A stretch of 62,940 nucleotides of DNA, counting the filler, from Candidatus Woesearchaeota archaeon (lineage in GTDB: Archaea > Nanobdellota > Nanobdellia > Woesearchaeales > BM511), in the NCBI GenBank assembly GCA_023266675.1. It is 5 parts of 5 records of this genome, joined end to end, with 100 filler letters (N's around TTAATTAATTAA, not from the genome) between each part and the next. Parts side by side here need not be neighbours in the genome. Positions count along the whole stretch, not along the records: positions 1 to 13,058 come from JAHFPP010000039.1; 4 more parts are not named here. The stretch is one strand, 5' to 3'. Under the pieces are notes generated by a model. That model had not been told where the DNA came from and did not search any database. It saw only the letters and a list, made by a program, of their open reading frames with translations. The position numbers and the translations under genes were made by a program. This document shows, piece by piece, positions 1-13,803 of the stretch. Every line of letters begins with the position of its first letter. Within the stretch, counting starts at the first letter, position 1.

Positions 1-443
1 CTGTGTAGCATTTATTCCAGAATCCTTCCCTCTACATTCAAATTCAATTACCAAGTTGAGTATCTTTAGCATAAGTATCAGTTTTTATCTCATAGGTATA
101 TTCCTGGCCCATATAAGACATTTTAAGGTCATAAGTAATATTTTTACAATGGAAAATTAAAAACAAAAAAATTTAAAAAAAAATTTTTACAGGACACATA
201 GTAGAAGTGCGCAAAGAAAAAGGGGTACCCTATAATTAAAAAGAGAAGAGTCTATGTTTATAGGCGCTTTGATTGGTTGAGAATTTTGAACCAAAAAAAA
301 TGAAAAAAAATCTGCGTGGACCTGGGCGGGTCCTTGAGGGGTCCTAATTTAGGGGGCTTATTAAAGGTGCGAGCCTAAATAGACCCCTTAAATGACCCAC
401 TTAGACCCCTAATTTATAGGCTCTAAGGTTCTATTTAGACCCC

Positions 444-617
444 TTAATCAAGACCCTTACCTTGATGCTTCGGCTTCCTCTTGTAGTCCTTTACAGACTT
501 GTGTACCTTATGTTTAAAATGTGGCACACCGAGTTCAATCTTTGCCTGACGATTAGCTGCACGTTCCATTAGCATAATTTGTAGCTTAGTGATTTTCGTA
601 TTGTTTTTCTTTTTCAT
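444..617 (-). CDS. Small basic phage-type protein (KHKVHKSVKDYKRKPKH motif)
   Basis: ATG at 617 is exactly 13 nt from the minus-strand motif; the track start at 668 reads through the motif. Confidence 0.7.
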   Translation of the reverse strand: MKKKNNTKITKLQIMLMERAANRQAKIELGVPHFKHKVHKSVKDYKRKPKHQGKGLD

Positions 618-671
618 ATTATTATAGGTCGAGTAAAAGAAAAAAAAGAAAGGGGAAATTTTCCCCACTCT

Positions 672-896
672 TTACGAGATTTTCTTTTTTTCTTTGTTCC
701 ATACACCGTATGATTTAGCATAAGGATTACCACCTACATACTTTTCAAATACCTTTACAACCGTACCTGTTGGTAATTCGTTCAATATACATGGATTGGT
801 GCTAAACATATCGTATTCAGTACCTTTGATTTGTTCTTTATTGGCTAATTTCTCGTTTAACTCTTTTTTGCTTTTAGCTTGAATGTAGATTGTCAT
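672..896 (-). CDS. Hypothetical phage protein
   Basis: 74 aa, downstream of minus-strand motif 923-931 and an A/C-rich leader. Confidence 0.75.
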   Translation of the reverse strand: MTIYIQAKSKKELNEKLANKEQIKGTEYDMFSTNPCILNELPTGTVVKVFEKYVGGNPYAKSYGVWNKEKKKIS

Positions 897-1026
897 ATTA
901 GTTTGTTTTGGTTGGTATATTCTTATAGGTCGAGATTTTCTAAAAAAAGAAAAAGTTGTTTAAGCCTAAAGGACTTTCTTTTTTTTCTTTTGTCTGACCT
1001 ATAAAGATATACCAAAAACAAACCAA

Positions 1027-1362
1027 ATGATGAACGTAGGCGAAAAAATCAACATAGAAGAGTTAAAAAAAGGCAGAGATTTAGATTGTGCCGAAATAAT
1101 GAACTTTTTACAGGCTCATAAACAACGTTTTTGGTGTTGGGGCGCACATAAGTTTATCAAAATGACCAATTCAGCACTACGCTTCAATGTAAGCGGTCTA
1201 ATTCATACAGGACACGTTTATATATTTATCAATGGTGCTGACTACTTTGATATATATTTAACGAGTAATCAGGGCACGATTAAGGCAGTTTTTAATGACA
1301 TTGATATTGAAAGTTTGTTTAGTGTAATAGATGAAAATATTGAAATAAAAAGAAGGGGTTAA
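1027..1362 (+). CDS. Hypothetical phage protein
   Basis: 111 aa, follows motif at 996; hairpin plus T-tract after the stop. Confidence 0.8.
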   Translation: MMNVGEKINIEELKKGRDLDCAEIMNFLQAHKQRFWCWGAHKFIKMTNSALRFNVSGLIHTGHVYIFINGADYFDIYLTSNQGTIKAVFNDIDIESLFSVIDENIEIKRRG

Positions 1363-1421
1363 CCTTTCTTTTTTTTCTTTTCTTTGACCTATAATAATAT
1401 ACCAACCAAAACAACCAACCG

Positions 1422-1727
1422 ATGAAAAATTTAGCAGATTTTAAAAAGTTAGCGACAATAGGCTCTAAATGGGAAGCTAAACATCATTTAACTTTTGCAG
1501 GGCGTGATGAAAATGGAAAAGCTATTTATACTACAAAGGATTTAGGGGTTCGTGAGGTGAGCATCAAACAAAGTAATTCAATTGCTTTTAAACAAGTAAA
1601 AACGGACGGCACAATTTCTGATAGTTGGTTGCAATATCCAAAGGCTTCGGACTGTAAATTTACAAATGATTCTATTGAAATTTATGAGGGCGAAACATTG
1701 GTATTAACATATAAACAAGCAAGTTAA
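1422..1727 (+). CDS. Hypothetical phage protein
   Basis: 101 aa between motifs 1386 and 1748. Confidence 0.75.
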   Translation: MKNLADFKKLATIGSKWEAKHHLTFAGRDENGKAIYTTKDLGVREVSIKQSNSIAFKQVKTDGTISDSWLQYPKASDCKFTNDSIEIYEGETLVLTYKQAS

Positions 1728-1781
1728 TTCTTTTTTTTCTTTTGTTTGACCTATAAGAATATAAACCAAAACGATATAGCT

Positions 1782-1964
1782 ATGTTTGACTATCCTAAAA
1801 GCAAATATTATTCATACAGTACAAGAGCAGAAGATTGGGCAAATTGTCAACCGATTAAAAGTCTTTTGTTAAAGCAGCGAAAAGGGAATTTTCTAACTTT
1901 AGAAGAAAAGAAGCGTATTTTAAAAGAAGCTGAAAAGAAACGTATTGAAAATAAAACGAAGTAG
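1782..1964 (+). CDS. Hypothetical phage protein
   Basis: First ATG after motif 1748; stop abuts the next motif. Confidence 0.65.
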   Translation: MFDYPKSKYYSYSTRAEDWANCQPIKSLLLKQRKGNFLTLEEKKRILKEAEKKRIENKTK

Positions 1965-1998
1965 ATTCTTTTTTTTGTTTTCTTTGACCTATAATAAT

Positions 1999-2181
1999 AT
2001 GGAAAACGAGAAATTAAAAGCAAAAATTATAGAGTTATGGCATACAAGCCGTTGCAATAATGTTTCAAGGTATGACCGTATGATATATGTTAGAGATTGG
2101 CTTAAAAAAGAAAGTCCTGAATTGGTAATTGATTTAAGCGCAAAGAAAATATGGTTTGCCATAGAAGATGCTATTAGTTAG
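1999..2181 (+). CDS. Hypothetical phage protein (leaderless class)
   Basis: ATG at +13 from motif 1986. Confidence 0.7.
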   Translation: MENEKLKAKIIELWHTSRCNNVSRYDRMIYVRDWLKKESPELVIDLSAKKIWFAIEDAIS

Positions 2182-2235
2182 ATTCTTTTTTTTCTTTTGT
2201 CTGACCTATAAGAATATATCAAAAACAACCAAACG

Positions 2236-2583
2236 ATGAAAGAGGAATCTGTAATAAATCATTATCTTATTGCTGCTTTATGGACTGCCGAACTTGATGG
2301 TCGTAATGTAGCTGAAATATCAGCTGAATCAATTAAAAAATCAGAAATAGATGTAAACAACTTTGTTAAGGGAGCATTGCCTCTTTTGAAACAATATAAA
2401 ACACCTATGACACCTGCTCAATTGGGACACGATTTTTGGCTTACTCGCAATCACCATGGCGTTGGATTTTGGGATAGGGATTTGGGCGAATTGGGGGATA
2501 AATTGACTGAATTAGCACATACATTTAAAGCGGTGAATGTATTTGGTGAAAATGATAATAAAGATGAAATTATTATTGAATAG
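2236..2583 (+). CDS. Conserved phage-type hypothetical protein (GHDFWLTRNHHGVGFWDR motif)
   Basis: 115 aa after motif 2203; motif-rich globular sequence. Confidence 0.8.
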   Translation: MKEESVINHYLIAALWTAELDGRNVAEISAESIKKSEIDVNNFVKGALPLLKQYKTPMTPAQLGHDFWLTRNHHGVGFWDRDLGELGDKLTELAHTFKAVNVFGENDNKDEIIIE

Positions 2584-2655
2584 TCAGGGGAGTTTCCCCT
2601 TTTCTTTTTTTCTTTTTCTTTGACCTATAATAATATAACCAAAACAAACAACTCT

Positions 2656-2898
2656 ATGAACTCAATATTAATAAAAGCACTTCAAAAATTAATTAAGCCA
2701 TGTCCTTGTTGCGGAGGTAAAGATGTTTATTTTAAAATTATAGATGAAAAAACTCAACAAGATGTTTCAAATAAATTAGATACTTACAAACAAGCTACTT
2801 ACTTAAAAGAGCAAGTTGGATGTTTTACTTGTGGATTAAATATGCAAAAAGCAGAAGGATGTCAGGCAATTAACCAATGGAATAATAGGGTTACTTAA
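2656..2898 (+). CDS. Lar-family restriction alleviation-like Zn-ribbon protein
   Basis: KPCPCCGG...VGCFTCG...AINQWNNR matches the Lar pattern KPCPFCG..CxxCG..A.xxWNxR. Confidence 0.65.
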   Translation: MNSILIKALQKLIKPCPCCGGKDVYFKIIDEKTQQDVSNKLDTYKQATYLKEQVGCFTCGLNMQKAEGCQAINQWNNRVT

Positions 2899-2952
2899 TT
2901 CTTTTTTTCTTTTTCTTTGACCTATAATAATATAACCAAAACAAACAAACTT

Positions 2953-3072
2953 ATGAAAGCCATTCAAAAAATTTACATTCGTGAAGCATTTAAACGAACT
3001 TTAAAATTTATGTCAAAAAGCAAGCAAGCGGAGCGAATGATAATATTTAATAAAACGTATATGAATTATTAA
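2953..3072 (+). CDS. Small hypothetical protein (39 aa)
   Basis: Below the ORF-track cutoff; fills the unit after motif 2919. Confidence 0.5.
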   Translation: MKAIQKIYIREAFKRTLKFMSKSKQAERMIIFNKTYMNY

Positions 3073-3127
3073 ATAAAAAGGGATTAATTTCCCTTTCTTT
3101 TTTTCTTTTTCTTTGACCTATAATAAT

Positions 3128-3200
3128 ATAAGAGAGATGCCTTGATAAGCAGAATCTATCCCCGCTGAAAATGGGTAGGATTAATCCGCACCTACCTTAT
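3128..3200 (+). ncRNA. Putative structured small RNA, copy 1 of 4
   Basis: ORF-less unit after motif 3115; AGAGATGCCTT..AAGCAGAATC..GGATTAATCCGCACCTACCTTATATT, homologous to 8095-8170. Confidence 0.5.
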
Positions 3201-3274
3201 ATTTTGGCTTGGATTTTGCGTTTCTTTTTTTTATTATCTTTGACCTATAATAATATACCAACCAAAACAACCAA

Positions 3275-3418
3275 ATGAAACAGACATTCTTAAAACAGTT
3301 ATCCTCCGTACATTCTAATAATTTGGTTATTGGTGTTGTGATGGAAAAATATAAAATGACTGCTATACAAGTCAGAAGGGCGTTTAATAAAAAAGAGCGT
3401 AGAGAAATAGCAAAATAG
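3275..3418 (+). CDS. Small hypothetical protein (47 aa)
   Basis: Fills the unit between motifs 3242 and 3443. Confidence 0.55.
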   Translation: MKQTFLKQLSSVHSNNLVIGVVMEKYKMTAIQVRRAFNKKERREIAK

Positions 3419-3476
3419 ACGTTTCTTTTTTTTCTTTTCTTTGACCTATAAGGATATAACCAAAACAACCAAACAA

Positions 3477-4052
3477 ATGGAAACAGTAATAAAAAAACAC
3501 ATTACAAAAGTTGAATTGTTGAACTTGTTAAGCGAATTTCGCAAAAACATATCTGCTACAAATGTAGCTTTTGGAAACATAGTTTATTTCGTAGATGAAA
3601 GCGGAGCAAAAACGGTAAACAAGCAAAAAGTTTTACAAAAATTTGTCAGAGTTAATTGTACCATTGGCGCAAAGTATGAAAACCGAATAAACAGAGATTT
3701 AGTTAAACAGGGCGAAGAGGCGAATTTTACCGCTCAAAGTATGTCAGGCAAGGAATATATCAATGACGAGGGAATCGTTGCCATAGACGTTAAAACAAGG
3801 ACAAAACACTATCTTGTTGCTACGGTTGAAAATCATACAATTCCAACGACTGTTTATTTTCACGAGGGCAAACGTATTTCTAAAGAGGACGCAATTAAAA
3901 AAGAGTTGTTTATGCCTTCACATTTTGCACCAAAAATTTCGTCAGGACGTGGCAATATGTCAGAAGATAAAGACTTTCACACTATTAATCCGAATTTAAG
4001 CAATATTATTTCATTAACATTAAACAAAACAAAGTTTATAATTATTGACTAA
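3477..4052 (+). CDS. Hypothetical phage protein (191 aa)
   Basis: ATG after the leader of motif 3443; terminator-like GGGG..CCCC-T tract follows. Confidence 0.8.
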   Translation: METVIKKHITKVELLNLLSEFRKNISATNVAFGNIVYFVDESGAKTVNKQKVLQKFVRVNCTIGAKYENRINRDLVKQGEEANFTAQSMSGKEYINDEGIVAIDVKTRTKHYLVATVENHTIPTTVYFHEGKRISKEDAIKKELFMPSHFAPKISSGRGNMSEDKDFHTINPNLSNIISLTLNKTKFIIID

Positions 4053-4147
4053 AAAAGTTAAGGGGTGAAAAAATCCCCCTTCTTTTTTTTACTTTCCCTG
4101 ACCTATAAAGATATAAGAACCAAAAACACACGCTATGAAAAAAAATT

Positions 4148-4328
4148 GATAATTTGAGTTCGCTCCCTCTTCTTGGTTTATGGCATTGGCAGCCACAACA
4201 GCACCCCCGTTTAACAGCGGGGGCTAAACGCTTCAGTAAATTTTGATGCAGCTCTCCCCAGAGTTTATTGCAGGGGTGGATTAACCCTGACCTTTCGGTG
4301 GTCGATTCAAGTTGCGAACTTTCTATCT
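4148..4328 (-). ncRNA. Putative structured small RNA, copy 2 of 4
   Basis: Starts at +13 of minus-strand motif 4333-4341; 4271-4328 matches 9760-9817 at 57/58 nt; 5' AGUUCGC can pair with 3' GCGAACU (4157-4163); U-tract follows. Confidence 0.55.
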
Positions 4329-4425
4329 ATACTTATAGGTCGGGCAAAGAAAAAAAAAGAAACGCTCCCTATTCTTTTTTTTGTTTTCTTTGACCTATAA
4401 TAATATAACCAAAACAACCAACGCC

Positions 4426-4626
4426 ATGAGCTTATTACAACAAATATTTGAAGAGGGCAGAAAAGCTGAAAATAAGAAAAAAGCAAAGAGTATGACCTTT
4501 TCAAATGAAGGAAAATTTCTTAATGCAAAGATGGTGGTTTATGATGATGCCTTTTTTGAAATTGTTGGTGGCAAATATGATGGTAATTTGGTTCACCGTT
4601 GGGATATTGTAAAACCAAAAAATTGA
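4426..4626 (+). CDS. Hypothetical phage protein
   Basis: ATG after the leader of motif 4392. Confidence 0.7.
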   Translation: MSLLQQIFEEGRKAENKKKAKSMTFSNEGKFLNAKMVVYDDAFFEIVGGKYDGNLVHRWDIVKPKN

Positions 4627-4663
4627 TTCTTTCTTTTTTTTTCTTTCCCTGACCTATAAGGAT

Positions 4664-4870
4664 ATGAGAAAGCAAACAGATACAAATGGAAACAAACTTA
4701 TTTTAGGTAGCGACCTTTCAGATGAACAGAAAGCACTTCTTAAATTCAATGGTATGAAAAATCCTTTGTGGATTAATAATCATTCTTTTTGGTTTAAAGA
4801 TGGCAATCCGTCAACCGAACAAGGGTTTATATATCCAGTTGTTAATTCATTTTCACATTTGCCATATTAA
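4664..4870 (+). CDS. Hypothetical phage protein (leaderless class)
   Basis: ATG at +13 from motif 4651. Confidence 0.7.
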   Translation: MRKQTDTNGNKLILGSDLSDEQKALLKFNGMKNPLWINNHSFWFKDGNPSTEQGFIYPVVNSFSHLPY

Positions 4871-4903
4871 TTCTTTTTTTTAAAATCAACGACCTATAAG
4901 GAT

Positions 4904-5131
4904 ATGAACAGAAAATTATTAGCACTTCGTGCCAAAGTAAATAAACTTATTGATAGCAGCGAGTACAAAAGTGTAAAGCTGTATGGAATTTCTTGTAGCA
5001 GGTCTGACCTGGAGATGGTTATATTTTTTGCAGATATTTTGTTGCGACAAGGCAATATCAATGGTTATTGTATTTATAACAATGATATTAAAAAAATATT
5101 TGCGGAAGCAGGAATCACTATTGAAAGTTAA
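4904..5131 (+). CDS. Hypothetical phage protein (leaderless class)
   Basis: ATG at +13 from motif 4891. Confidence 0.7.
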   Translation: MNRKLLALRAKVNKLIDSSEYKSVKLYGISCSRSDLEMVIFFADILLRQGNINGYCIYNNDIKKIFAEAGITIES

Positions 5132-5188
5132 AATTCTTTTTTTTGTTTTGTTTGACCTATAAGGATATAACCAAAACAACCAATCATA

Positions 5189-5419
5189 ATGACACGCAAA
5201 GAATTTAAAAAATCAGTTTCTCAATTTGCTAAAGAAGTTTTAAAAAAACGTGGCAGTATTTATAGAGATGTAAAAATTAACCTTTCGCTCCCTACAATTT
5301 CATTCGGTGATTTTTTTGTACAAGGCGAATCAGCGGAGCAATTAATAGCAGAAGCACCAAAGGATATAAATTTGCGTACTTGGTTATTATTCTATTTAGA
5401 TGGAGCAGGAGCAATTTAA
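5189..5419 (+). CDS. Hypothetical phage protein
   Basis: Between motifs 5154 and 5445. Confidence 0.7.
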   Translation: MTRKEFKKSVSQFAKEVLKKRGSIYRDVKINLSLPTISFGDFFVQGESAEQLIAEAPKDINLRTWLLFYLDGAGAI

Positions 5420-5477
5420 AATTTTTCTTTTTTTTGTTTTGTTTGACCTATAAGGATATAACCAAAACCACAGAGCC

Positions 5478-5753
5478 ATGAAAACTCAACCGATAAACAG
5501 AGTAGGATTTAAAACATCTTGGATGACAGATGAAGATTCTAATGTAAATATTACAGTAGAGCCAATGCAAAATATTTCAAATGGTTCTGACGAAGTAGCA
5601 TTAACACCTGCACACGTTGAATTGAGAACGAGAATTGCAATGATTGAGGCGGTAATTTCGGGCAAAGGTTTTTCTAAATTTGTAAAAGAGAAAAAAGCTG
5701 AATTTTTGGAAGAATACAAATTATTTGTATCATTGGATGCACAGTTGGGTTAA
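5478..5753 (+). CDS. Hypothetical phage protein
   Basis: Between motifs 5445 and 5774. Confidence 0.7.
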   Translation: MKTQPINRVGFKTSWMTDEDSNVNITVEPMQNISNGSDEVALTPAHVELRTRIAMIEAVISGKGFSKFVKEKKAEFLEEYKLFVSLDAQLG

Positions 5754-5786
5754 TTCTTTTTTTTAAATTATTCGACCTATAAGGAT

Positions 5787-5987
5787 ATGAAAACATTTGA
5801 ATTTATTACATTAAATGCCAAACGAGTTAAAGAAACCAATGGCATTTATAAGGGGTTTGTAAAAACAGAAATCTTTAAACAAGATGGAACGTTAAAGGCA
5901 ATCATACCTGCTGAACAAACTCAACCACGTAAAAGTAAAAAATTCATTACATTAAATTGCTTTAAATTTCGTTTAAATTGGATTTAA
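5787..5987 (+). CDS. Hypothetical phage protein (leaderless class)
   Basis: ATG at +13 from motif 5774. Confidence 0.7.
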   Translation: MKTFEFITLNAKRVKETNGIYKGFVKTEIFKQDGTLKAIIPAEQTQPRKSKKFITLNCFKFRLNWI

Positions 5988-5991
5988 AATT

Positions 5992-6330
5992 ATGGAACAA
6001 AAAATATTAAGCCCGAAAATATCTAATTGGAAAGACCTTGTTGAGCAGTTTGGCTTGAGAACACCACTTGGAAAAAATTATAAAACTGCGGTTGAAATTT
6101 CAAGAGATTTAACTTTTGCAAATGAAAGAATTGACCTCAACGATAAAAGAGAGCAACCACGACCTCAAAAGGATGGAATTATGACTTTTGTAAGTCAGAG
6201 AGAGGATGAAATGACTTGTGTTACAATTGCATACGAGAGAGATAATTTTGATTCAGGGGTTTGTAATTTTGAGTTCGTTGGTATGGAAGGAGAGCGGAGA
6301 GTTTATGATTATTTAGGTACGGCAAAATAA
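5992..6330 (+). CDS. Hypothetical phage protein, second gene of a bicistronic unit
   Basis: Starts 4 nt after the previous stop, has no motif of its own. Confidence 0.7.
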   Translation: MEQKILSPKISNWKDLVEQFGLRTPLGKNYKTAVEISRDLTFANERIDLNDKREQPRPQKDGIMTFVSQREDEMTCVTIAYERDNFDSGVCNFEFVGMEGERRVYDYLGTAK

Positions 6331-6387
6331 TGTTTCTTTTTTTTCTTTTCTTTGACCTATAAGAATATACCAAAACAATCAGAGCAA

Positions 6388-6690
6388 ATGAAAAAAGACA
6401 CAGAAGTAACCGATATGATTTTCAGAGTTGACACTGCAAAAGAGTATAAAGACAACGTGTTTGCATTATTTCCTCACGAGGTTTGCACACGCAAAGGAGA
6501 TGTTACAACTTATCAACACATTGGGCAACATAGTTCGGGAGATTATAAAGCTTGTATTAGTCAATCACGACCTGCCACAGAACAAGAGTATAAAGATTTA
6601 AAAGCCGAATTGGATTCAATAGGCTACAATATAAACATTGTTAAAAAACAAAATTATAAAAAGTATTTAATATCCTACCGTAAAAGATAA
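6388..6690 (+). CDS. Conserved phage-type hypothetical protein (FALFP..YQHIGQHS..PATEQEY..L..EL..IGY)
   Basis: ATG after the leader of motif 6354. Confidence 0.75.
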   Translation: MKKDTEVTDMIFRVDTAKEYKDNVFALFPHEVCTRKGDVTTYQHIGQHSSGDYKACISQSRPATEQEYKDLKAELDSIGYNINIVKKQNYKKYLISYRKR

Positions 6691-6743
6691 TTTTTGGTTT
6701 GGTTTGTTTAAAATGCGGGAGTGGTTGCCCGATTGGATGGATT

Positions 6744-6808
6744 GCAAAGATTGGGATAGCGTCTTTGTTGTTTTAAAGGGGTAAGGATTGGGATAGCGTC
6801 CTTACCCC
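6744..6808 (+). other. Twin hairpins with an identical 11-nt loop TTGGGATAGCG; the second doubles as an intrinsic terminator
   Basis: GCAAAGA-loop-TCTTTGT (6744-6768) and GGGGTAAGGA-loop-TCCTTACCCC (6778-6808), followed by a T-tract. Confidence 0.65.
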
Positions 6809-6861
6809 CTTTCTTTTTTTCTTTTTCTTTGACCTATAATAATATACCAACCAAAACCACA

Positions 6862-7110
6862 ATGACAACTACTGTAACTGCCCATAATGTTCTTGTTAGT
6901 AAAGCCATTCTCAATACAGATTATTTTCAGTTTAAAGAATTATTTCTGAAGGGATGCAGGAATTGCAATAAATTGGTTAAATATAACCATACCAAAGAAA
7001 AACGTTTTATGAAAGAAAATAGGTATGTTTATATTTGCGAATGTGCTGAATGTAAAAATCCGTTATTGCTTGATGGAGTAGATATGTACCTATTGAACGG
7101 AAAAGTATAG
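6862..7110 (+). CDS. Small Zn-ribbon protein (CxxC..CxxC)
   Basis: CRNC and CAEC; after motif 6831. Confidence 0.65.
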   Translation: MTTTVTAHNVLVSKAILNTDYFQFKELFLKGCRNCNKLVKYNHTKEKRFMKENRYVYICECAECKNPLLLDGVDMYLLNGKV

Positions 7111-7144
7111 TTTCTTTTTTTTGTTTTCTTTGACCTATAATATT

Positions 7145-7366
7145 ATGAAAGCAAACGAAATAACATCAATAGGAGTGTTGGTATCACACAAAGGCGGTAA
7201 AAACCTGACACCTATTTTTAAAGGTAGTCAATTCCCTATCTTTGTTTATGTTACAAATAATGAGTTTGACACAGTAAAAGACAATAAAAAACTGATGAAA
7301 AAATTGGTTATTAAAAAAATAAAAGAGAAAGAATTTAAAACTTATTCTGAATGGATAAGGGAGTAG
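7145..7366 (+). CDS. Hypothetical phage protein (leaderless class)
   Basis: ATG at +13 from motif 7132. Confidence 0.7.
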   Translation: MKANEITSIGVLVSHKGGKNLTPIFKGSQFPIFVYVTNNEFDTVKDNKKLMKKLVIKKIKEKEFKTYSEWIRE

Positions 7367-7421
7367 TTTCTTTTTTTTCTTTTGTCTGACCTATAATAAT
7401 ATAACCAAAACAATCGAACTC

Positions 7422-7646
7422 ATGGATAATGCAGAGATAAAGCTCGTACATATTTCACAAATATCAAAAGGTGATACGATTGTTGCCAATGATGGCAAGT
7501 TGACCACAGTATGCACTAACAATATAGAAAGGGGCGGATTTTGTGGAGATACTTTGTTTGGAGATAGTTATCGTTCGGGTACTATACCAGTTCAAAAAGT
7601 TGTGGGATGGATAGGTAAAAATGGCTCAGTTGTTCCGATTAGATAA
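7422..7646 (+). CDS. Hypothetical phage protein
   Basis: After motif 7388; VHISQI..GDT..TLFGDSY pattern. Confidence 0.75.
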   Translation: MDNAEIKLVHISQISKGDTIVANDGKLTTVCTNNIERGGFCGDTLFGDSYRSGTIPVQKVVGWIGKNGSVVPIR

Positions 7647-7701
7647 TTCTTTTTTTCTTTTTCTTTGACCTATAACAATATAAACCAAAACAATCGAACA
7701 A

Positions 7702-7905
7702 ATGGCAAAAAAGAAAAGATACGATGTTCTTTCTCCTGATGGATTTGCAATCGAAAGAGAGAAAGATTATGCAACAAGAGAAGAGGCAATTGCGGCTTTT
7801 ACTGAATGGGCAAAACGATTTGAAAAGCAGGGATATTACAGTTCAAATAATGGACGTATTCCATTGAAAGACCTTGAAGATGAATGTAGTTTAATAGAAG
7901 TATAA
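7702..7905 (+). CDS. Hypothetical phage protein
   Basis: After motif 7667. Confidence 0.75.
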   Translation: MAKKKRYDVLSPDGFAIEREKDYATREEAIAAFTEWAKRFEKQGYYSSNNGRIPLKDLEDECSLIEV

Positions 7906-7922
7906 ATTTAAAAACAAAAACG

Positions 7923-8042
7923 ATGGGAGATATTAAAATAATGCAAAGTGATAAAGAAATACGAATAAGTGTTTTCCCGATGAAATATCCGAGCGGAAAA
8001 GATATGCGGAGATTAAGAAGGGCGGCAAATCGAAATAGTTAA
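7923..8042 (+). CDS. Small hypothetical protein (39 aa)
   Basis: A-rich leader; second ORF of the unit, then hairpin and T-tract. Confidence 0.45.
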   Translation: MGDIKIMQSDKEIRISVFPMKYPSGKDMRRLRRAANRNS

Positions 8043-8094
8043 ATGAGAGGGATTTTTCCCTTTCTTTTTTTTGTTTTCTCTGACCTATAAGTAT

Positions 8095-8170
8095 ATCAAG
8101 AGAGATGCCTTACAAAGCAGAATCGACCTCCGAGAGGGCAGGGTTAATCCACTCCTACCTTATATTCTGC
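8095..8170 (+). ncRNA. Putative structured small RNA, copy 3 of 4
   Basis: ORF-less unit after motif 8082; GAATCGACC-TCCGAGAGGG-CAGGGTTAATCCACTCCT core shared with the minus-strand copies. Confidence 0.55.
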
Positions 8171-8307
8171 TGGTCTTTCTTTTTTTTATTTTCTTTGACC
8201 TATAATATTGATGCCTTATATTTTGGTCGGTTTTTTGTTTAGGCTTGGATAAGTTTCTTTTTTTTCTTTTCTTTGACCTATAATAATATAACCAAAACAA
8301 ACGAACT

Positions 8308-8457
8308 ATGTTATTTGAAACTCCATTAAGTAAGACAAAAGTTAGAAATGGTATTTATGCCTATAAATATGCTAACGGCTGTATAAATATTAACGGGCAA
8401 AAATACTTTTTTTATTCCATAAAAAATGCAATAAAATTATGGAGAAGTAAAAACTAA
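8308..8457 (+). CDS. Small hypothetical protein (49 aa)
   Basis: Fills the unit after motif 8275. Confidence 0.55.
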   Translation: MLFETPLSKTKVRNGIYAYKYANGCININGQKYFFYSIKNAIKLWRSKN

Positions 8458-8545
8458 TTTTCTTTTCAGCTTAAAGTACTTTCTTTTTTTTCTTTTCTTT
8501 GACCTATAATAATATAAACAAACAAACTAAAAACCCAAAACGAAA

Positions 8546-9496
8546 ATGGCACACAACTTAGAAAATGTAAATGGCAAAACAAGTTTTGCAAGTACTGAAA
8601 AAGCATGGCACAATTTAGGACAAATTGTGGAAGGTGCAATGACTTCTGAAGAAGCAATCAAATTGGCAAGTTTGGACTACGAAGTAGCTTTAAAACCTTG
8701 TACTTTTGATGTTGAAATGGGCAAAAGTATTGTAGTACCAAACAATTTTGTTTCTTACCGTAAAGATACAAATATGCCTTTGGGAGTAGTGGGAAACCGT
8801 TACACAATCGTACAAAACACAGAAGCATTTGGATTTTTTGATTCAATTGTTGGGGGCAAAATCGCAATGTTTGAAACGGCAGGAGTTTTGGGGCAAGGTG
8901 AAAGAATTTTTGTAAGTGCAAAAATGCCTGATGTTATCAAAATTGATGGAACTGATGACATCACAGAGGTTTACGTTCTTTTAACAAGTTCACACGATGG
9001 TTCAGGTTCAATAATTGCAGCGGTAACACCTGTAAGAGTTGTATGCCAAAATACCTTAAATGCAGCCCTTAAAAACACTATTTCACGAGTTGCAATACGT
9101 CATACCACAAGTGCATCAAAACGTCTTGAAGATGCTCACAAATTGCTTGGAATTTCTCACAAGTTTGTAACTGAAACAAATGAATTGTTTAACTCACTTG
9201 CAAAAAAATCCATCACAGATGCACGTGTTAAGGAACTTGTTGAAAACTTGTTCAAAAGTGAAAAAGATGATTCAACCAGAATTACGAACATTAGAGAGGC
9301 TGTTATGGCTTCGTACTTTGACGGAATCGGACAAGATAAAATAATTGGTACGGCTTGGGGTGCTTACAACGGAATCACTCACTACTTAGACCACGTTCAA
9401 AAATACAGAACAGGAGATGTTAAATTTGACTCCCTGATGAACGGTGCAAGTTCAAAGATAGCAGAGAGTGCTTTTCAACAATTAATCACTCTATAA
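8546..9496 (+). CDS. DUF932 / TIGR03299-type phage/plasmid protein
   Basis: AWHNLG, LGVVGNRYTIVQNTEAFGFFD, FETAGVL, SSHDGSGS, TPVRVVCQNTL, GTAWGAYNGIT motifs. Confidence 0.9.
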   Translation: MAHNLENVNGKTSFASTEKAWHNLGQIVEGAMTSEEAIKLASLDYEVALKPCTFDVEMGKSIVVPNNFVSYRKDTNMPLGVVGNRYTIVQNTEAFGFFDSIVGGKIAMFETAGVLGQGERIFVSAKMPDVIKIDGTDDITEVYVLLTSSHDGSGSIIAAVTPVRVVCQNTLNAALKNTISRVAIRHTTSASKRLEDAHKLLGISHKFVTETNELFNSLAKKSITDARVKELVENLFKSEKDDSTRITNIREAVMASYFDGIGQDKIIGTAWGAYNGITHYLDHVQKYRTGDVKFDSLMNGASSKIAESAFQQLITL

Positions 9497-9704
9497 GCAT
9501 AAAAAGGGGCAAAAACAGGGGAGGGATTTTAAATATCTCCCTTTCTTTTTTTTGTTTTGCTTGACCTATAATCATATAACAAATAAAAACTAAAAAGATG
9601 AATCACTTAAATTCAGAAGCTCAATTGTATGATTTTCATTCGGCTGAATTATTAGCCAATGCGGGAAAGTAAAAAAACAATAAATGCTGAAGCATGGCAG
9701 GTGG

Positions 9705-9817
9705 GACAAAAGTTCTGCCTGCTTTTTTATTTGCTCTCCCTATTGAGCAGAGTATAAGGCAGGAGTGGATTAACCCTGACCTTTCGGTGGTCGATTCAAG
9801 TTGCGAACTTTCTATCT
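9705..9817 (-). ncRNA. Putative structured small RNA, copy 4 of 4 (3' end uncertain)
   Basis: Starts at +13 of minus-strand motif 9822-9830; near-identical 58 nt to 4271-4328. Confidence 0.55.
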
Positions 9818-9938
9818 GATATTATAGGTCGAATAAAATAAAAAAAAGAAACGTATCTTTATCTCCTTTAGGCTCAAAGTACTTTCTTTTTTTTACTCTC
9901 CCTGACCTATAATAATATAACCAAAACAAAACAACCAA

Positions 9939-10124
9939 ATGAACTACGAGCCACGCAAAATATCTTCAACAGAAAATAGTGAATATTTAGCATTGTTTCA
10001 CAAGGCTGCTAATAGAGTTGTTCTTGATGAAGCAGAGCGAACAAGATTTAATAATTTGCTTACATTAAAACGAGCAAGACAAAGATTTGATATTCAATTT
10101 AACAATATGGTTAAATATAACTAA
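9939..10124 (+). CDS. Hypothetical phage protein
   Basis: After motif 9904. Confidence 0.65.
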   Translation: MNYEPRKISSTENSEYLALFHKAANRVVLDEAERTRFNNLLTLKRARQRFDIQFNNMVKYN

Positions 10125-10174
10125 GCAAATGCTCAAAGCAGTTCTTTTTTTTCTTTTCTTTGACCTATAATAAT

Positions 10175-10345
10175 ATGAAAGCAAAACCTGAAATAATAAA
10201 AATTAAAAGAGCGTGTCCTTGTTGTAATAAAAAAGATAATGTAAGAAAGGATTTTGATTTCCCAAAGACAGTGAGGTGTTGTGATAATTGCGGAGCTGAT
10301 TTTATGACTAATGGTGAAATAATATTTAATCCAAAAGTTAATTAA
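10175..10345 (+). CDS. Small Zn-ribbon protein (leaderless class)
   Basis: CPCC..CDNCG; ATG at +13 from motif 10162. Confidence 0.7.
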   Translation: MKAKPEIIKIKRACPCCNKKDNVRKDFDFPKTVRCCDNCGADFMTNGEIIFNPKVN

Positions 10346-10398
10346 TTCTTTTTTTTATTTTCTTTGACCTATAACAATATAACCAACAAAAACAACCA

Positions 10399-10719
10399 AT
10401 GAAAAATTTAGAGGAAAAATTAAAGCAGATTGATAAAATATTGGTTGCTCCATATCGTAAAGGTTTGAACTATGTTAAATTGATTGACCTTAGAGCAAAA
10501 GTATTAGCAGCTCTTCCTAAAAAAGTTCATGCTGATTTAACAGAGGCAGAGAAAATTGAATTGAAAAAAATCACCACAGAGATATTCGGCAATTCTACGA
10601 TGTTTATAATCTTTGATGATGAACAAGCAAACAATCCAAACTTGCAGCGTTGGGAGGATTTAATGACAAAACAAGCAAATTTTCAACAATATATGCTTCG
10701 TTGTATGGCTCAAAATTGA
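10399..10719 (+). CDS. Hypothetical phage protein
   Basis: After motif 10366. Confidence 0.7.
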   Translation: MKNLEEKLKQIDKILVAPYRKGLNYVKLIDLRAKVLAALPKKVHADLTEAEKIELKKITTEIFGNSTMFIIFDDEQANNPNLQRWEDLMTKQANFQQYMLRCMAQN

Positions 10720-10764
10720 GTAACTATTCAATTCTTTTTTTTAAAAACCTTGACCTATAATAAT

Positions 10765-10983
10765 ATGAGAAAGTATAAAGTAGAACATAGAGCAGTAATT
10801 AACACAGCAGGCGGTTTAATGTTTCGCAATGATGATTTGTATATTTCCCCAATATTTGAAAGAGGAGATTCGGGTGAATTGGCACGTAAACAAACAAGGG
10901 GCGAAGCATTGACAAGAGAAGAAAAAAATATTGTATCGTTATATGCTGAAAAAAAACGTAAAGAAAATTTAATGAAAAAATAG
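10765..10983 (+). CDS. Hypothetical phage protein (leaderless class)
   Basis: ATG at +13 from motif 10752. Confidence 0.7.
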   Translation: MRKYKVEHRAVINTAGGLMFRNDDLYISPIFERGDSGELARKQTRGEALTREEKNIVSLYAEKKRKENLMKK

Positions 10984-11017
10984 TTTCTTTTTTTCAATCT
11001 CCCTGACCTATAATAAT

Positions 11018-11416
11018 ATGAAACAGACAAAGCCAAAATTCAGCACACTTGTAAAAAATCTTTTAGCAATTGGTGGCACACGAGTTGTTGGCGACTTTGA
11101 TGAAGACTTGGCTAAAATTTTAAGCAGAGGCGAAGTGTTCTCCCCAAAGAAAGTTAAGAGTGTAAAAATGATACCTTGTAGATGCCATGCGAACGCAGGA
11201 GTATTTTGGGATAATTATTCATATAAAAACGGTTTTGATAACATTCAAATTGTAACTGGTTTTTGTTTGTCAGAAGATGGTTTATGGCGTTCGCATTCTT
11301 TTTTGTATCAGCCAATAGATAATGTAATAATTGAAACAACTGTAAAGAGAAAAATCTATTTTGGATTTGCTTTGAACTTAGAGGAATCTAAAAGTCACCA
11401 CGAAAATAATCATTAA
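11018..11416 (+). CDS. Putative papain/transglutaminase-like fold protein (Cys-His)
   Basis: RCHANA..IVTGF..GLWRSHSF..IIETT pattern; ATG at +13 from motif 11005. Confidence 0.55.
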   Translation: MKQTKPKFSTLVKNLLAIGGTRVVGDFDEDLAKILSRGEVFSPKKVKSVKMIPCRCHANAGVFWDNYSYKNGFDNIQIVTGFCLSEDGLWRSHSFLYQPIDNVIIETTVKRKIYFGFALNLEESKSHHENNH

Positions 11417-11421
11417 ATTCT

Positions 11422-11622
11422 ATGAATACAATCACATTTTCAAGACAAGCATTAAGCGACTACAAAAACAAGTCTTTAGATGCTATTGTAAACGGAAACA
11501 CCACTTTTGTACATAAAGGGGCGCTTATTAAAGTAAGTGATGCTGAACGGCTCATTGATAAGTTTACACCACACTTTTTGGATAAAAATAAGGATGAAGT
11601 AACAATACTGTATAATTTTTAA
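11422..11622 (+). CDS. Hypothetical phage protein, second gene of the unit
   Basis: 5 nt after the previous stop. Confidence 0.65.
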   Translation: MNTITFSRQALSDYKNKSLDAIVNGNTTFVHKGALIKVSDAERLIDKFTPHFLDKNKDEVTILYNF

Positions 11623-11713
11623 TCTTTCTTTTTTCAATCTCCCTGACCTATAATTTCAGAAACAAAGTTTCTGTCATAATAATATAAATCAAACAACTTA
11701 AAACTTTAAAATT

Positions 11714-11839
11714 ATGAAATCAATCTTCATCTTCGGAATTTTATCAATTGGATTATTAACGTCAGCACCAATTCTCCCTCGTAAAATTCGGGTTCCAAAA
11801 GAAACAGTTCACATTTTCAAAAAAGGATTCAGAGGTTAA
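11714..11839 (+). CDS. Small protein with hydrophobic N-terminus (41 aa)
   Basis: MKSIFIFGILSIGLLTSA; after interrupted motif 11645. Confidence 0.45.
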   Translation: MKSIFIFGILSIGLLTSAPILPRKIRVPKETVHIFKKGFRG

Positions 11840-11968
11840 AACTTTGGGGCGGAAAAATCAAGTCGGCATAAAACGAGAAGTCATACTCACGTAAGTCCCC
11901 AGGAATTACCCGCTCTTCTTTTTTTTATTTTCTTTGACCTATAATAATATAACTAAAACAAACGAGCC

Positions 11969-12235
11969 ATGCCTGACACAGTAGAAAAAGTATTAACTCC
12001 ACAAGAGCGCAAAGAAAAGTTTATAACTGATTTACAAGCAAAACTTGAAAAACGTTTTGAAGATGGTAAAACACTTGTAGCGGGATTTGAAACGTGTTCA
12101 AGAGCGCCAGCGTTTGGTTGGAGTGTTGAAGAGTATATGTATATGCCAATTGTGGCTTCACGTTTGAGAGAAAAAGGATTCACAGTATCAAGCAAAGTGA
12201 ATTGGGAGGTTACAGATTGGAATATTGCATTGTAG
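11969..12235 (+). CDS. Hypothetical phage protein
   Basis: After motif 11936. Confidence 0.7.
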   Translation: MPDTVEKVLTPQERKEKFITDLQAKLEKRFEDGKTLVAGFETCSRAPAFGWSVEEYMYMPIVASRLREKGFTVSSKVNWEVTDWNIAL

Positions 12236-12269
12236 TTTCTTTTTTTTAAATTCCTTGACCTATAACAAT

Positions 12270-12542
12270 ATGAAAAAGATAATCGTATTATTCGGAAATT
12301 TTACTTTTCATCATTTTGATGAAATTGAATTAAAATTATTTAAACAGAATACTGAACAGAAGGCGCTTATACATTCATTGGATAAAGTGTTTGAAGTTGA
12401 CACAGAGGCAGAAGTTGATGAACTTATTAATCAACTTGAAAATGTTTATTATGCGTGGATTGTACCAAGCGAATTTAAAGGGGAAATTGCAATTGAAGAG
12501 CCAAACAAAACACTTGACGAATTGATTGCAGAAAAAAAATAA
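12270..12542 (+). CDS. Acidic hypothetical phage protein (leaderless class)
   Basis: ATG at +13 from motif 12257. Confidence 0.7.
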   Translation: MKKIIVLFGNFTFHHFDEIELKLFKQNTEQKALIHSLDKVFEVDTEAEVDELINQLENVYYAWIVPSEFKGEIAIEEPNKTLDELIAEKK

Positions 12543-12579
12543 GTGTTTCTTTTTTTTAAATTCCTTGACCTATAATAAT

Positions 12580-12996
12580 ATGAAACAGACAAAAGTAATA
12601 AAGTTGATGATAATTAATAATTTCATTGACCATTGGACAAGCAATGAGGCTGAACGTGAACGAATGAAAAACACTGCAGCTGTTTATGTTACAGAAGACC
12701 ATGTTGATGAAATTGCACAATCGAATCTTTTAGATTCAATTGTTGTGAATAAGGATGCAGCAAAAGAGAGAGTTGAAAAAACGTATAATGAAGTTCTTGC
12801 AAAAATTAAGTCTATGGCTAAAAATGGACTTTCTACATTTAGAATTGACTTGCTTGTGGCTGATTCAATTGAACTTGAAGAAATTGTAAATAAACTTGAA
12901 AGTGAGCATCAAATAATGATTGGGTACAAAGGTAAAATGTATAATGGTTATGAGAGGGATTTAAAGAGTTGGACAATCAGATTTTTCACAAATTAA
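12580..12996 (+). CDS. Hypothetical phage protein (leaderless class)
   Basis: ATG at +13 from motif 12567. Confidence 0.7.
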   Translation: MKQTKVIKLMIINNFIDHWTSNEAERERMKNTAAVYVTEDHVDEIAQSNLLDSIVVNKDAAKERVEKTYNEVLAKIKSMAKNGLSTFRIDLLVADSIELEEIVNKLESEHQIMIGYKGKMYNGYERDLKSWTIRFFTN

Positions 12997-13058
12997 TAAC
13001 TTTCTTTTTTTTATTTTGTTTGACCTATAATAAAAAACAAACAGATGAACAAGCAAGG

Positions 13059-13158
13059 NNNNNNNNNNNNNNNNNNNNNNNNNNNNNNNNNNNNNNNNNN
13101 NNTTAATTAATTAANNNNNNNNNNNNNNNNNNNNNNNNNNNNNNNNNNNNNNNNNNNN
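13059..13158. other. Artificial contig linker
   Basis: N44-TTAATTAATTAA-N44 (stops in all six frames). Confidence 0.99.
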
Positions 13159-13803
13159 TACAGAAAAACCACATTAAAGGATCTGAAACGCTTTTCAAAA
13201 AAATACAAATTAAAAGTAAAAATAATTTCTTTTAAAAAAGAGTTTGGGTTTTCGCTTGATGAAGCAGTAAAAAAGTTTGATGAGAATCCTTGCCATATAT
13301 GCGGTGTGCTTAGGCGATTTCTTTTAAACAAATATTCAAAAAAATACGATGTTATAGTTACAGGTCACAATCTTGATGATGAAGCTCAGGCAGTTATGAT
13401 GAATATTTTAAAGGCGCAGACTGAACTTCAGACAAGGCTTGGACCTATAAGCGGCGTAAAAACAAACGCCGGATTTACAAAGAGGGTAAAACCTCTATAT
13501 TTTATAAAAGAAAAGGAAGTAAAGGCGTATACTCTTCTTATGGGATTTAACATAAATTTTACTGAGTGTACATATTCGCACTTATCATTCAGATCAGAAG
13601 TTCAAAAGGAATTAAATAATTATGAATCAAAGCACAGCGGTGCAAAACTTAACTTGATAAATAATTTTTTAAAATCACTTCCAAAATTAAAAAATAAATT
13701 CAAAAGTGAAGAAAACGTTTCATTATGTCAAAGATGCGGCGAACCATCAGCAGGAAATGAATGCAGAACTTGTCAGATAATTGCTAAATTCAATTCTAAA
13801 TAA
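13159..13803 (+). CDS. TtuA/NcsA (TIGR00269-type) tRNA 2-thiolation protein, 5'-truncated by contig edge
   Basis: Frame open from 13159: PCHICGVLRR, TGHNLDDEAQ, RVKPL, C-terminal CxxCGEP..CxxC. Confidence 0.9.
   Translation, partial: YRKTTLKDLKRFSKKYKLKVKIISFKKEFGFSLDEAVKKFDENPCHICGVLRRFLLNKYSKKYDVIVTGHNLDDEAQAVMMNILKAQTELQTRLGPISGVKTNAGFTKRVKPLYFIKEKEVKAYTLLMGFNINFTECTYSHLSFRSEVQKELNNYESKHSGAKLNLINNFLKSLPKLKNKFKSEENVSLCQRCGEPSAGNECRTCQIIAKFNSK

Follow-up and report, generated by a model that had tools for sequence, protein, structure and literature searches.

The window analysed here is a stretch of 62,940 nucleotides from an assembly labelled Candidatus Woesearchaeota archaeon (GCA_023266675.1), in which five contigs of one 1.22-Mb bin are joined through runs of N. 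Its first contig, C3 (bases 1–13058), carries an array of a 34-nt unit that is built around the 9-mer GACCTATAA and is repeated before small genes and before copies of a small structured RNA. On the sequence evidence, the unit is very probably a promoter. The fuller reading is that C3 belongs to a misbinned Bacteroidota element, that the promoter is read by a sigma factor of that element and that transcription starts 13 nt after the G of GACCTATAA, so that part of the mRNAs would be leaderless; this is the reading that we favour, with moderate confidence.

GACCTATAA was found 42 times in the window against 0.46 expected, and the maximum over 100 shuffles was 3. Forty-one of the copies are on C3, while the 42nd, at 13442, is on another contig, has none of the extended context and is apparently a chance match. 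Bin-wide, the 9-mer is dense on four contigs only, namely C3 (41), C68 (29), C74 (29) and C10 (7), and the 8 isolated matches on other bin contigs are all without extended context. In order to avoid a circular definition of the unit, sites were anchored on TTCTTTTTT alone. This gave 129 hits, with GACCTATAA exactly at +20 in 103, at +19 in one and GACCTATAT in one; the remaining 24 were unrelated to the unit. The 105 aligned sites are conserved over the 20 nt preceding the G, the G itself and the 13 nt following, and read TTCTTTTTTTT, one variable base, TTTTCTTT, GACCTATAA, taat and A. The preliminary description had placed the 9-mer in the correct register; the conserved unit proved to be 34 nt long rather than 9. 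The spacing register between the two blocks is the same in 104 of the 105 units, which amount to one per 535 bp on the four contigs. The spacer between the blocks is pyrimidine-type with a less conserved position in it, and the four bases after GACCTATAA (N4) are low in information.

Units were always oriented in the direction of the downstream gene or RNA, and in 88 out of 104 an ATG opening an open reading frame (ORF) lies on the same strand within 56 nt. The other 16 are RNA units, units at contig ends or units with more distant ORFs. Known promoter consensus sequences did not account for the array: E. coli-type sigma-70 promoter matches numbered 51 against 52.1 expected, and the Bacteroidota primary-sigma motif TAnnTTTG was not enriched on the four contigs. 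The Bacteroidota primary-sigma promoter has TTTG at −33 and TAnnTTTG at −7; TTTG is absent from positions −13 to −1 of the unit.

The position of start codons relative to the unit was rigid. The first ATG opening an ORF of at least 25 aa was found at offset 13 from the G in 25 of 104 units, at offsets 5–12 in none, at 14–19 in none, at 20–26 in 24, at 30–40 in 39 and further away in 8, with 8 units (RNA units and contig ends) having none. A single ATG occurs at offsets 14–19 and opens no ORF. In total 27 units have an ATG at offset 13, of which 25 open ORFs of 56–247 aa, the two exceptions being a 7-codon ORF and a contig end; as a background, of the 1824 ATGs on the four contigs as a whole, 19.8% begin an ORF of 45 aa or more. 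On C3 this class comprises the eleven ATGs that had been listed beforehand as GACCTATAA-N4-ATG, at 617 (minus strand), 1999, 4664, 4904, 5787, 7145, 10175, 10765, 11018, 12270 and 12580, and each of them opens an ORF of 56–138 aa. Position +13 is occupied by A in 102 of 105 units, and in 83 the base before it is T. The earlier statement that most other units have ATA at +13 also held, with 24 of 30 such units on C3, as did the statement that leaders are devoid of Shine-Dalgarno sequences (SD-like 4-mer in 0 of 67). Leaders are almost free of G, with A peaks at −13 to −11, −6 and −3. A leaderless class had been proposed beside a single short-leader class; the former found indirect support, while the two-class scheme gave way to three classes of 0, 7–13 and 17–27 nt. 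Leaders of like type are described for Flavobacterium johnsoniae, where 87% of transcripts have leaders of more than 10 nt (PMC6847099).

The pile-up of ATGs at offset 13, the T(−1)/A(+1) signature and the fact that homology between RNA copies begins at the same base all argue, though indirectly, that +13 acts as the transcript start, as had been proposed. We accordingly regard a start at +13 plus or minus 1 as likely, and a leaderless mRNA class, comprising roughly 25% of units, would follow the same register. It had been suggested that homologs be examined for a shared start at the +13 Met, and the three genes examined gave no reason to reject the +13 ATGs as true starts. A gene of the GP88 family on C68 starts at a +13 ATG; 110 of the 120 homologs listed for it begin within −3 to +2 residues of this Met, and an N-terminal excess of more than 2 residues is seen in only 2. 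For ORF 11018–11416, alignments start at query residues 2–14 in most of the 150 homologs listed out of 1600 matches. Its three closest homologs have 7–12 extra N-terminal residues; between the in-frame stop upstream and ATG 11018 there is no other ATG, GTG or TTG, and the following Met is at residue 51. Lastly, the ORF starting at 4904 has an ortholog of 48.6% identity on a contig of a Bacteroidota metagenome-assembled genome (MAG), and the ATG is at +13 in both genomes.

Some units serve a structured RNA of about 74 nt with three helices instead of a gene. An alignment of nine copies, seven from the four contigs and two from the relative, showed compensatory changes in 6 of the 14 predicted pairs. 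The covariance model built from these nine copies found a tenth in the relative, outside the training set and exactly at +13 of a unit. Six of the ten alignments have +13 as their first base and the other four begin no more than 4 nt away, and every copy is preceded by a promoter unit of its own. On C3 the copies are at 3128–3207 (plus strand, 78.2 bits, beginning at +13 of the unit 3095–3128, G 3115), 4258–4332 (minus strand, 83.4 bits, the RNA beginning at 4328, which is +13 of the unit 4328–4361, G 4341), 8095–8170 (plus strand, 83.6 bits, beginning at +13 of the unit 8062–8095, G 8082, which follows a terminator hairpin at 8045–8064) and 9747–9820 (minus strand, 93.1 bits, the RNA beginning at 9817, which is +13 of the unit 9817–9850, G 9830). 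Downstream of a further plus-strand unit, 8177–8210 (G 8197), the RNA is reduced to its 3' tail, a truncated copy. Copies outside the window were located at 11103–11161 of L009, 14952–15027 of L010 and 604–677 of L011, all on the minus strand, and those of the relative (L227) at 2515–2591 (plus), 3882–3957 (minus) and 8328–8403 (plus). The two minus-strand copies of C3 are identical from +13 for about 57 nt and differ in spacer and N4 (gtat and tatc), in agreement with what had been noted before. Rfam gave no gathering-level match in the window and nothing relevant at E≤5 in 3100–4400, and the tRNA search returned none matching the RNA.

A convergent layout is kept at 4080–4361, at 9543–9850 and at about 3678–3968 of L227, where a plus-strand unit with a tiny ORF faces the minus-strand RNA. 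On C3 the facing units are 4080–4113 (G 4100), which has no ORF of 25 aa or more, and 9543–9576 (G 9563), which has a short ORF only and is separated from the RNA copy by a terminator-like hairpin at 9696–9723. This arrangement may serve antisense or insulation control.

A candidate for the factor reading the unit was found on C10, where positions 5779–6498 (minus strand) encode a 239-aa protein with the Pfam domains Sigma70_r2 and r4. It scores 73.6 against the NCBIfam extracytoplasmic function (ECF) superfamily model TIGR02937, above the cut-off of 42.9, and is the only ECF-like sigma gene match in the bin. The best NCBIfam model is SigW, although the protein is not SigW as it scores 83.5, far below the cut-off of 209. 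No anti-sigma partner was identified. A unit is present upstream of the sigma gene in all three readable loci (L019, L020 and C10), at offsets of 39, 45 and 50; the homologs in L019 and L020, which come from other metagenomes, have 59% and 54% identity. Among 30 public relatives of the sigma, 28 (P0002–P0029) have 47–60% identity. The contigs concerned reach 135 kb and are attributed by their sources to Pacebacteria or Ignavibacteria MAGs, a labelling that suggests frequent misbinning. The sigma profile found no close relative in IMG/VR and only two short close relatives among the best 80 loci of a metagenome scan.

The preliminary description had held that TATAA sits too close to the start for a sigma-70 promoter. 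This objection is invalid because it equates TATAA with the −10 hexamer. If +13 is counted as +1, the T-block TTCTTTTTTTT falls at −33 to −23 and GACCTATAA at −13 to −5, an ordinary layout for the sigma-70 family. Two blocks with fixed spacing and, on the element, a sigma gene with the unit upstream were both found, as expected of a sigma-70-family (ECF-like) promoter. Of the phage-encoded polymerase or specificity factor that had been put forward instead, the specificity factor finds a counterpart in the ECF-like sigma of C10 with its own unit upstream, while no polymerase was found in the incompletely assembled element. We infer that the element sigma is the factor that reads the unit.

Several observations weigh against this reading. 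ECF promoters usually have the cores AAC in the −35 and CGT in the −10 block, which TTCTTTTTT and GACCTATAA lack. The sigma gene carries a unit itself, so that expression on entry may call for some other trigger. The element-type sigma was found in none of eight motif-bearing Bacteroidota genomes (G001, G002, G003, G103, G106, G120, G124 and G138); seven of them have only a SigW-like host sigma (107–126 bits), and in G120 the element-sigma profile had no match at E≤1e-25. A clear terminator hairpin accompanies only 14 of 104 units. RNA contigs from the same sample gave two matching records that overlap only a low-complexity T-run. Finally, the 56 kb of element assembled show no structural genes, terminase or polymerase, and a phage and a plasmid or integrative and conjugative element both fit.

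As motif-bearing Bacteroidota genomes lack the element-type sigma, a host factor could read the unit. The promoter and start would then be the same but would be read by the Bacteroidota SigW-like sigma or another host factor, and the element sigma would only boost transcription or serve other promoters. The clusters of units in these genomes fit this alternative, as does the sigma gene being under a unit, since another factor may be needed first. The host SigW-like sigma is conserved, 204–206 aa long (L224 in G003:C76, L225 in G002:C17 and L226 in G001:C15), and is the closest cellular relative of the element sigma, at 107–126 bits compared to 78 or less for other host ECF sigmas. Host sigma genes were however without a unit upstream, and the exact pattern was limited to mobile-element contexts, with 3 sites in 4.8 Mb and 7 in 3.9 Mb. 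As these MAGs are incomplete, a missing element sigma is in addition weak evidence. We consider a host factor unlikely, while leaving it a real chance of being the reader.

Transcription by an RNA polymerase of the element's own, either single-subunit as in T7 and SP6 or of another phage type, encoded on an unassembled part and starting at or just after TATAA or at +13, appears very improbable. In its favour, the signal forms one long uninterrupted stretch that hardly varies as far as the start site, and its GACCTATAA part resembles the core of SP6/T7-type promoters; moreover, the 56 kb in hand compare with contigs of up to 135 kb that carry sigma homologs. Against this, two blocks separated by a less conserved position, a low-information N4 and a T/A start signature are in keeping with a sigma-type promoter, and a sigma gene does exist and accompanies the unit in all three readable loci. 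The search for a T7-like polymerase (PF00940) gave no match in the bin, which is weak evidence since the control matched in no genome and the element is incomplete, and no ORF on the four contigs exceeds 353 aa.

It had also been proposed that +13 is a cassette junction. As a rival to promoter function, with the unit primarily an integron-like or recombinase site and +13 the cassette boundary, this was not upheld; it is a likely secondary property. C3 and its relative share four collinear orthologs, which anchor differing numbers of cassettes, with 8 units compared to 1 between the first two in this one pair of relatives. In 44 of 104 units no more than 5 nt separate the T-block from the stop codon upstream, and resolvase genes adjoin units in chromosomal clusters. 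Since each gene lies between identical 34-mers, the units are probably also the points at which whole promoter-gene cassettes are gained and lost. The unit is however without an inverted repeat, always points the same way as the gene or RNA downstream, and is followed by ATGs at 13 or at 20 and beyond but never opening a gene at 14–19, by a purine start signature and by A-rich translation leaders. Recombination at identical promoters moreover explains insertions and deletions with no dedicated site, as has been proposed for the promoter-early stem-loops (PeSLs) of T4-type phages (PMC4122927). A junction as the primary role of the unit therefore has only a slender probability. As to termination, the perfect GC-containing hairpins that end at the T-block in 14 of the 104 units compare with 0.95% of random positions, and a consensus scan of C3 gave 12 terminator-like sites against 6.4 expected.

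The element is confined to C3 within the window, positions 13059–62940 being remaining bin contigs, the last of which (C8) carries a gene for the archaeal TATA-binding protein (TBP). C3, C68, C74 and C10, 56 kb together, are probably misbinned Bacteroidota mobile-element DNA in an archaeal MAG, because arrays and clusters of the unit occur in Bacteroidota genomes and the leaders are Bacteroidota-like while the bin is archaeal. The relative is a 10,998-bp contig (L227) of a Bacteroidota MAG that is collinear with C3 and holds an array of 31 units, with an ATG at offset 13 in 9, at 14–19 in none, and A at +13 in all 31. Clusters of 2–7 units are present in Bacteroidota chromosomal contigs, one of 547 kb, where they adjoin genes for resolvase, tyrosine integrase, DUF5131 and DUF6876, with a protein bearing a type IX secretion system (T9SS) tail nearby. 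Such clusters were located at L221 (G002:C32, 391.4–392.4 kb), L222 (G003:C131) and L223 (G003:C100) as well as in G106, G120 and G138, and at L221 two of three units are also in the +13 ATG register. In one Bacteroidota order, 11 of 185 genomes had the unit pattern, and the reversed control pattern gave 2 hits; among 150 further genomes from the archaeal order to which the bin belongs, a single one showed the unit pattern. A promoter of archaeal type, carried by a virus or plasmid of a DPANN host, with the T-block as BRE/TATA and a T/A initiator, is compatible with the position of the T-block in archaeal promoter geometry, with the leaderless class and with the archaeal, TBP-encoding bin, but deserves hardly any credence given the bacterial sigma-70-family gene that carries the unit, the arrays and clusters in Bacteroidota including the 547-kb contig, the single hit in the archaeal order, the Bacteroidota type of the leaders and gene families that are those of bacterial mobile elements.

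The element is probably an uncultivated, phage- or plasmid-like element of Bacteroidota. Only 6 of its 137 predicted ORFs had Pfam matches above cut-off (DUF932, GP88, ParB HTH, sigma, UVR and DUF6900), to which PHROGs added ParB-like matches, and no paralogs were found among the 137. No terminase was found in the bin. Comparison of positions 1–13500 with a phage collection by megablast gave no match, the IMG/VR scan for the unit pattern gave 5 lone hits and no arrays, and the IMG/VR search with the DUF932 protein gave no close relative. No overlaps between contig ends able to join the four contigs were found, and tetranucleotide principal component analysis did not set them cleanly apart from the rest of the bin. 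No description of the GACCTATAA motif was found in the literature outside supplements, the literal matches among those listed being unrelated primers and sequences.

Known systems resemble parts of this arrangement. SigW of Bacillus subtilis and other ECF group 4 sigmas recognise promoters of two blocks with AAC and CGT cores. The element sigma is similar in having an r2 and an r4 domain, SigW as its best NCBIfam model and apparent autoregulation, and also in blocks about 17 bp apart and a start about 5–8 nt after the −10 block; it differs in its score below the SigW cut-off and in blocks that lack these cores. Phage two-domain sigmas with promoters of their own are gp36 of phiEco32 and gp47 of Salmonella phage 7-11, the 7-11 consensus being bipartite with a fixed spacer, GTAAtg-16-aCTA (PMC8948821). 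As is proposed here, in these phages a mobile-element sigma redirects the host core polymerase to a private conserved promoter. Those phages are described there as having about 8 promoters before late operons, whereas here there are at least 105, about one per small gene; the consensus and the host, a Bacteroidota, are also different, the sigma gene is under its own promoter, about a quarter of units would be leaderless, and the present system is known from sequence alone.

The PeSLs are composite cassettes that combine terminator and promoter between small ORFan genes in plastic regions and are points of modular exchange, which is how the units described here appear as well. In contrast to the latter, PeSLs are early promoters of the host primary sigma with a stem-loop in every one (PMC4122927), while the units show no sigma-70 consensus and a hairpin in a minority, and recombination is deduced from one pair of relatives. 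Crass-like phages also infect Bacteroidota, and two of them, cr10_1 and cr50_1, encode an ECF-like sigma about 30% identical to that of C10. The crAss-like phage phi14:2 has conserved tripartite promoters before middle genes, but these resemble the primary-sigma type and are read by the sigma-70 holoenzyme (bioRxiv 10.1101/2020.03.07.982082). The crAss-like virion polymerase was tried as a reader of the unit and rejected, as early transcripts of phi14:2 are stated there to share no upstream motif. No close protein similarity of the element to records of the phage collection, crAss-like phages included, was found. The differences from known systems are hence one promoter per gene, the consensus, the apparently autoregulated sigma, the leaderless share of about 25% and the phylum of the host.

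Under the sigma reading that we favour, host core RNA polymerase carrying the ECF-like sigma of the element would bind both blocks, and transcription would begin at the A lying 13 nt after the G. Where this A(+1) is the A of an ATG, a leaderless mRNA would result; otherwise the mRNA would have a G-free, A-rich, SD-less leader of Bacteroidota type of 7–27 nt. In a minority of units the T-block would at the same time supply the U-tract of an intrinsic terminator, and recombination between identical units would lead to turnover of whole promoter-gene cassettes. It is conceivable, albeit decidedly doubtful, that the sigma/promoter pair is a portable private transcription channel common to two kinds of Bacteroidota mobile DNA. 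One kind would be a large, sigma-encoding, ORFan-rich, phage-like element, and the other would be small integrase/resolvase islands of host chromosomes with 2–7 promoters and no such sigma, silent satellites that are switched on only when the sigma-bearing element enters; the multi-copy 74-nt RNA would be an effector of the same circuit.

If the sigma reading is correct, one small sigma, one 34-nt promoter and a defined start base make up a complete parts list for orthogonal transcription in Bacteroidota, whose promoters and translation signals are unusual and for which few genetic tools exist. Leaderless mRNAs, which are reportedly rare in this phylum (PMC6847099), would then account for about a quarter of the element's genes. 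The same promoter before about 100 unrelated small ORFan genes would make each gene an autonomous cassette, a simple route to rapid turnover of accessory genes, possibly for host takeover or anti-defence. The four contigs are in addition flagged as contamination of an archaeal MAG.

The remaining units of C3 are on the plus strand unless stated. Leaderless ORFs follow the units at 617–650 (minus strand, G 630, ORF 444–617 of 57 aa), 1966–1999 (G 1986, ORF 1999–2181), 4631–4664 (G 4651, ORF 4664–4870), 4871–4904 (G 4891, ORF 4904–5131, the one with the Bacteroidota ortholog) and 5754–5787 (G 5774, ORF 5787–5987, after which ORF 5992–6330 has no unit of its own). The same is seen downstream of 7112–7145 (G 7132, ORF 7145–7366), 10142–10175 (G 10162, ORF 10175–10345), 10732–10765 (G 10752, ORF 10765–10983), 10985–11018 (G 11005, ORF 11018–11416), 12237–12270 (G 12257, ORF 12270–12542) and 12547–12580 (G 12567, ORF 12580–12996).

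Leaders of 18 nt separate the units at 976–1009 (G 996) and 6811–6844 (G 6831) from ORFs 1027–1362 and 6862–7110, respectively. The leader is 20 nt for 2183–2216 (G 2203, ORF 2236–2583), 3222–3255 (G 3242, ORF 3275–3418), 5425–5458 (G 5445, ORF 5478–5753), 8255–8288 (G 8275, ORF 8308–8457), 10346–10379 (G 10366, ORF 10399–10719) and 11916–11949 (G 11936, ORF 11969–12235). Units with a 21-nt leader are 1728–1761 (G 1748, ORF 1782–1964), 2602–2635 (G 2622, ORF 2656–2898, with a terminator hairpin before it at 2586–2600), 2899–2932 (G 2919, ORF 2953–3072), 3423–3456 (G 3443, ORF 3477–4052), 4372–4405 (G 4392, ORF 4426–4626), 6334–6367 (G 6354, ORF 6388–6690) and 7368–7401 (G 7388, ORF 7422–7646). 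Slightly longer leaders, of 22 nt, were found after 918–951 (minus strand, G 931, ORF 672–896), 5134–5167 (G 5154, ORF 5189–5419), 7647–7680 (G 7667, ORF 7702–7905) and 9884–9917 (G 9904, ORF 9939–10124), and one of 23 nt after 1366–1399 (G 1386, ORF 1422–1727). The unit at 8481–8514 (G 8501) has a 32-nt leader before the DUF932 ORF, 8546–9496. The variant unit at 11625–11658 (G 11645), in which the T-block is one base closer, has a 56-nt leader before ORF 11714–11839, and the unit at 13002–13035 (G 13022), at the contig end, has a short A-rich leader and an ORF that runs off the contig.

The protein encoded by ORF 11018–11416 is 132 aa long, has no Pfam match and belongs to a large uncharacterised family, with 1600 library proteins at E≤0.001, which often forms the C-terminal domain of longer proteins. 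ORFs 2656–2898 and 10175–10345 encode small Cys-rich proteins with weak, below-cut-off matches to the Lar restriction-alleviation family, which hints that some of the cassettes may be anti-restriction genes.

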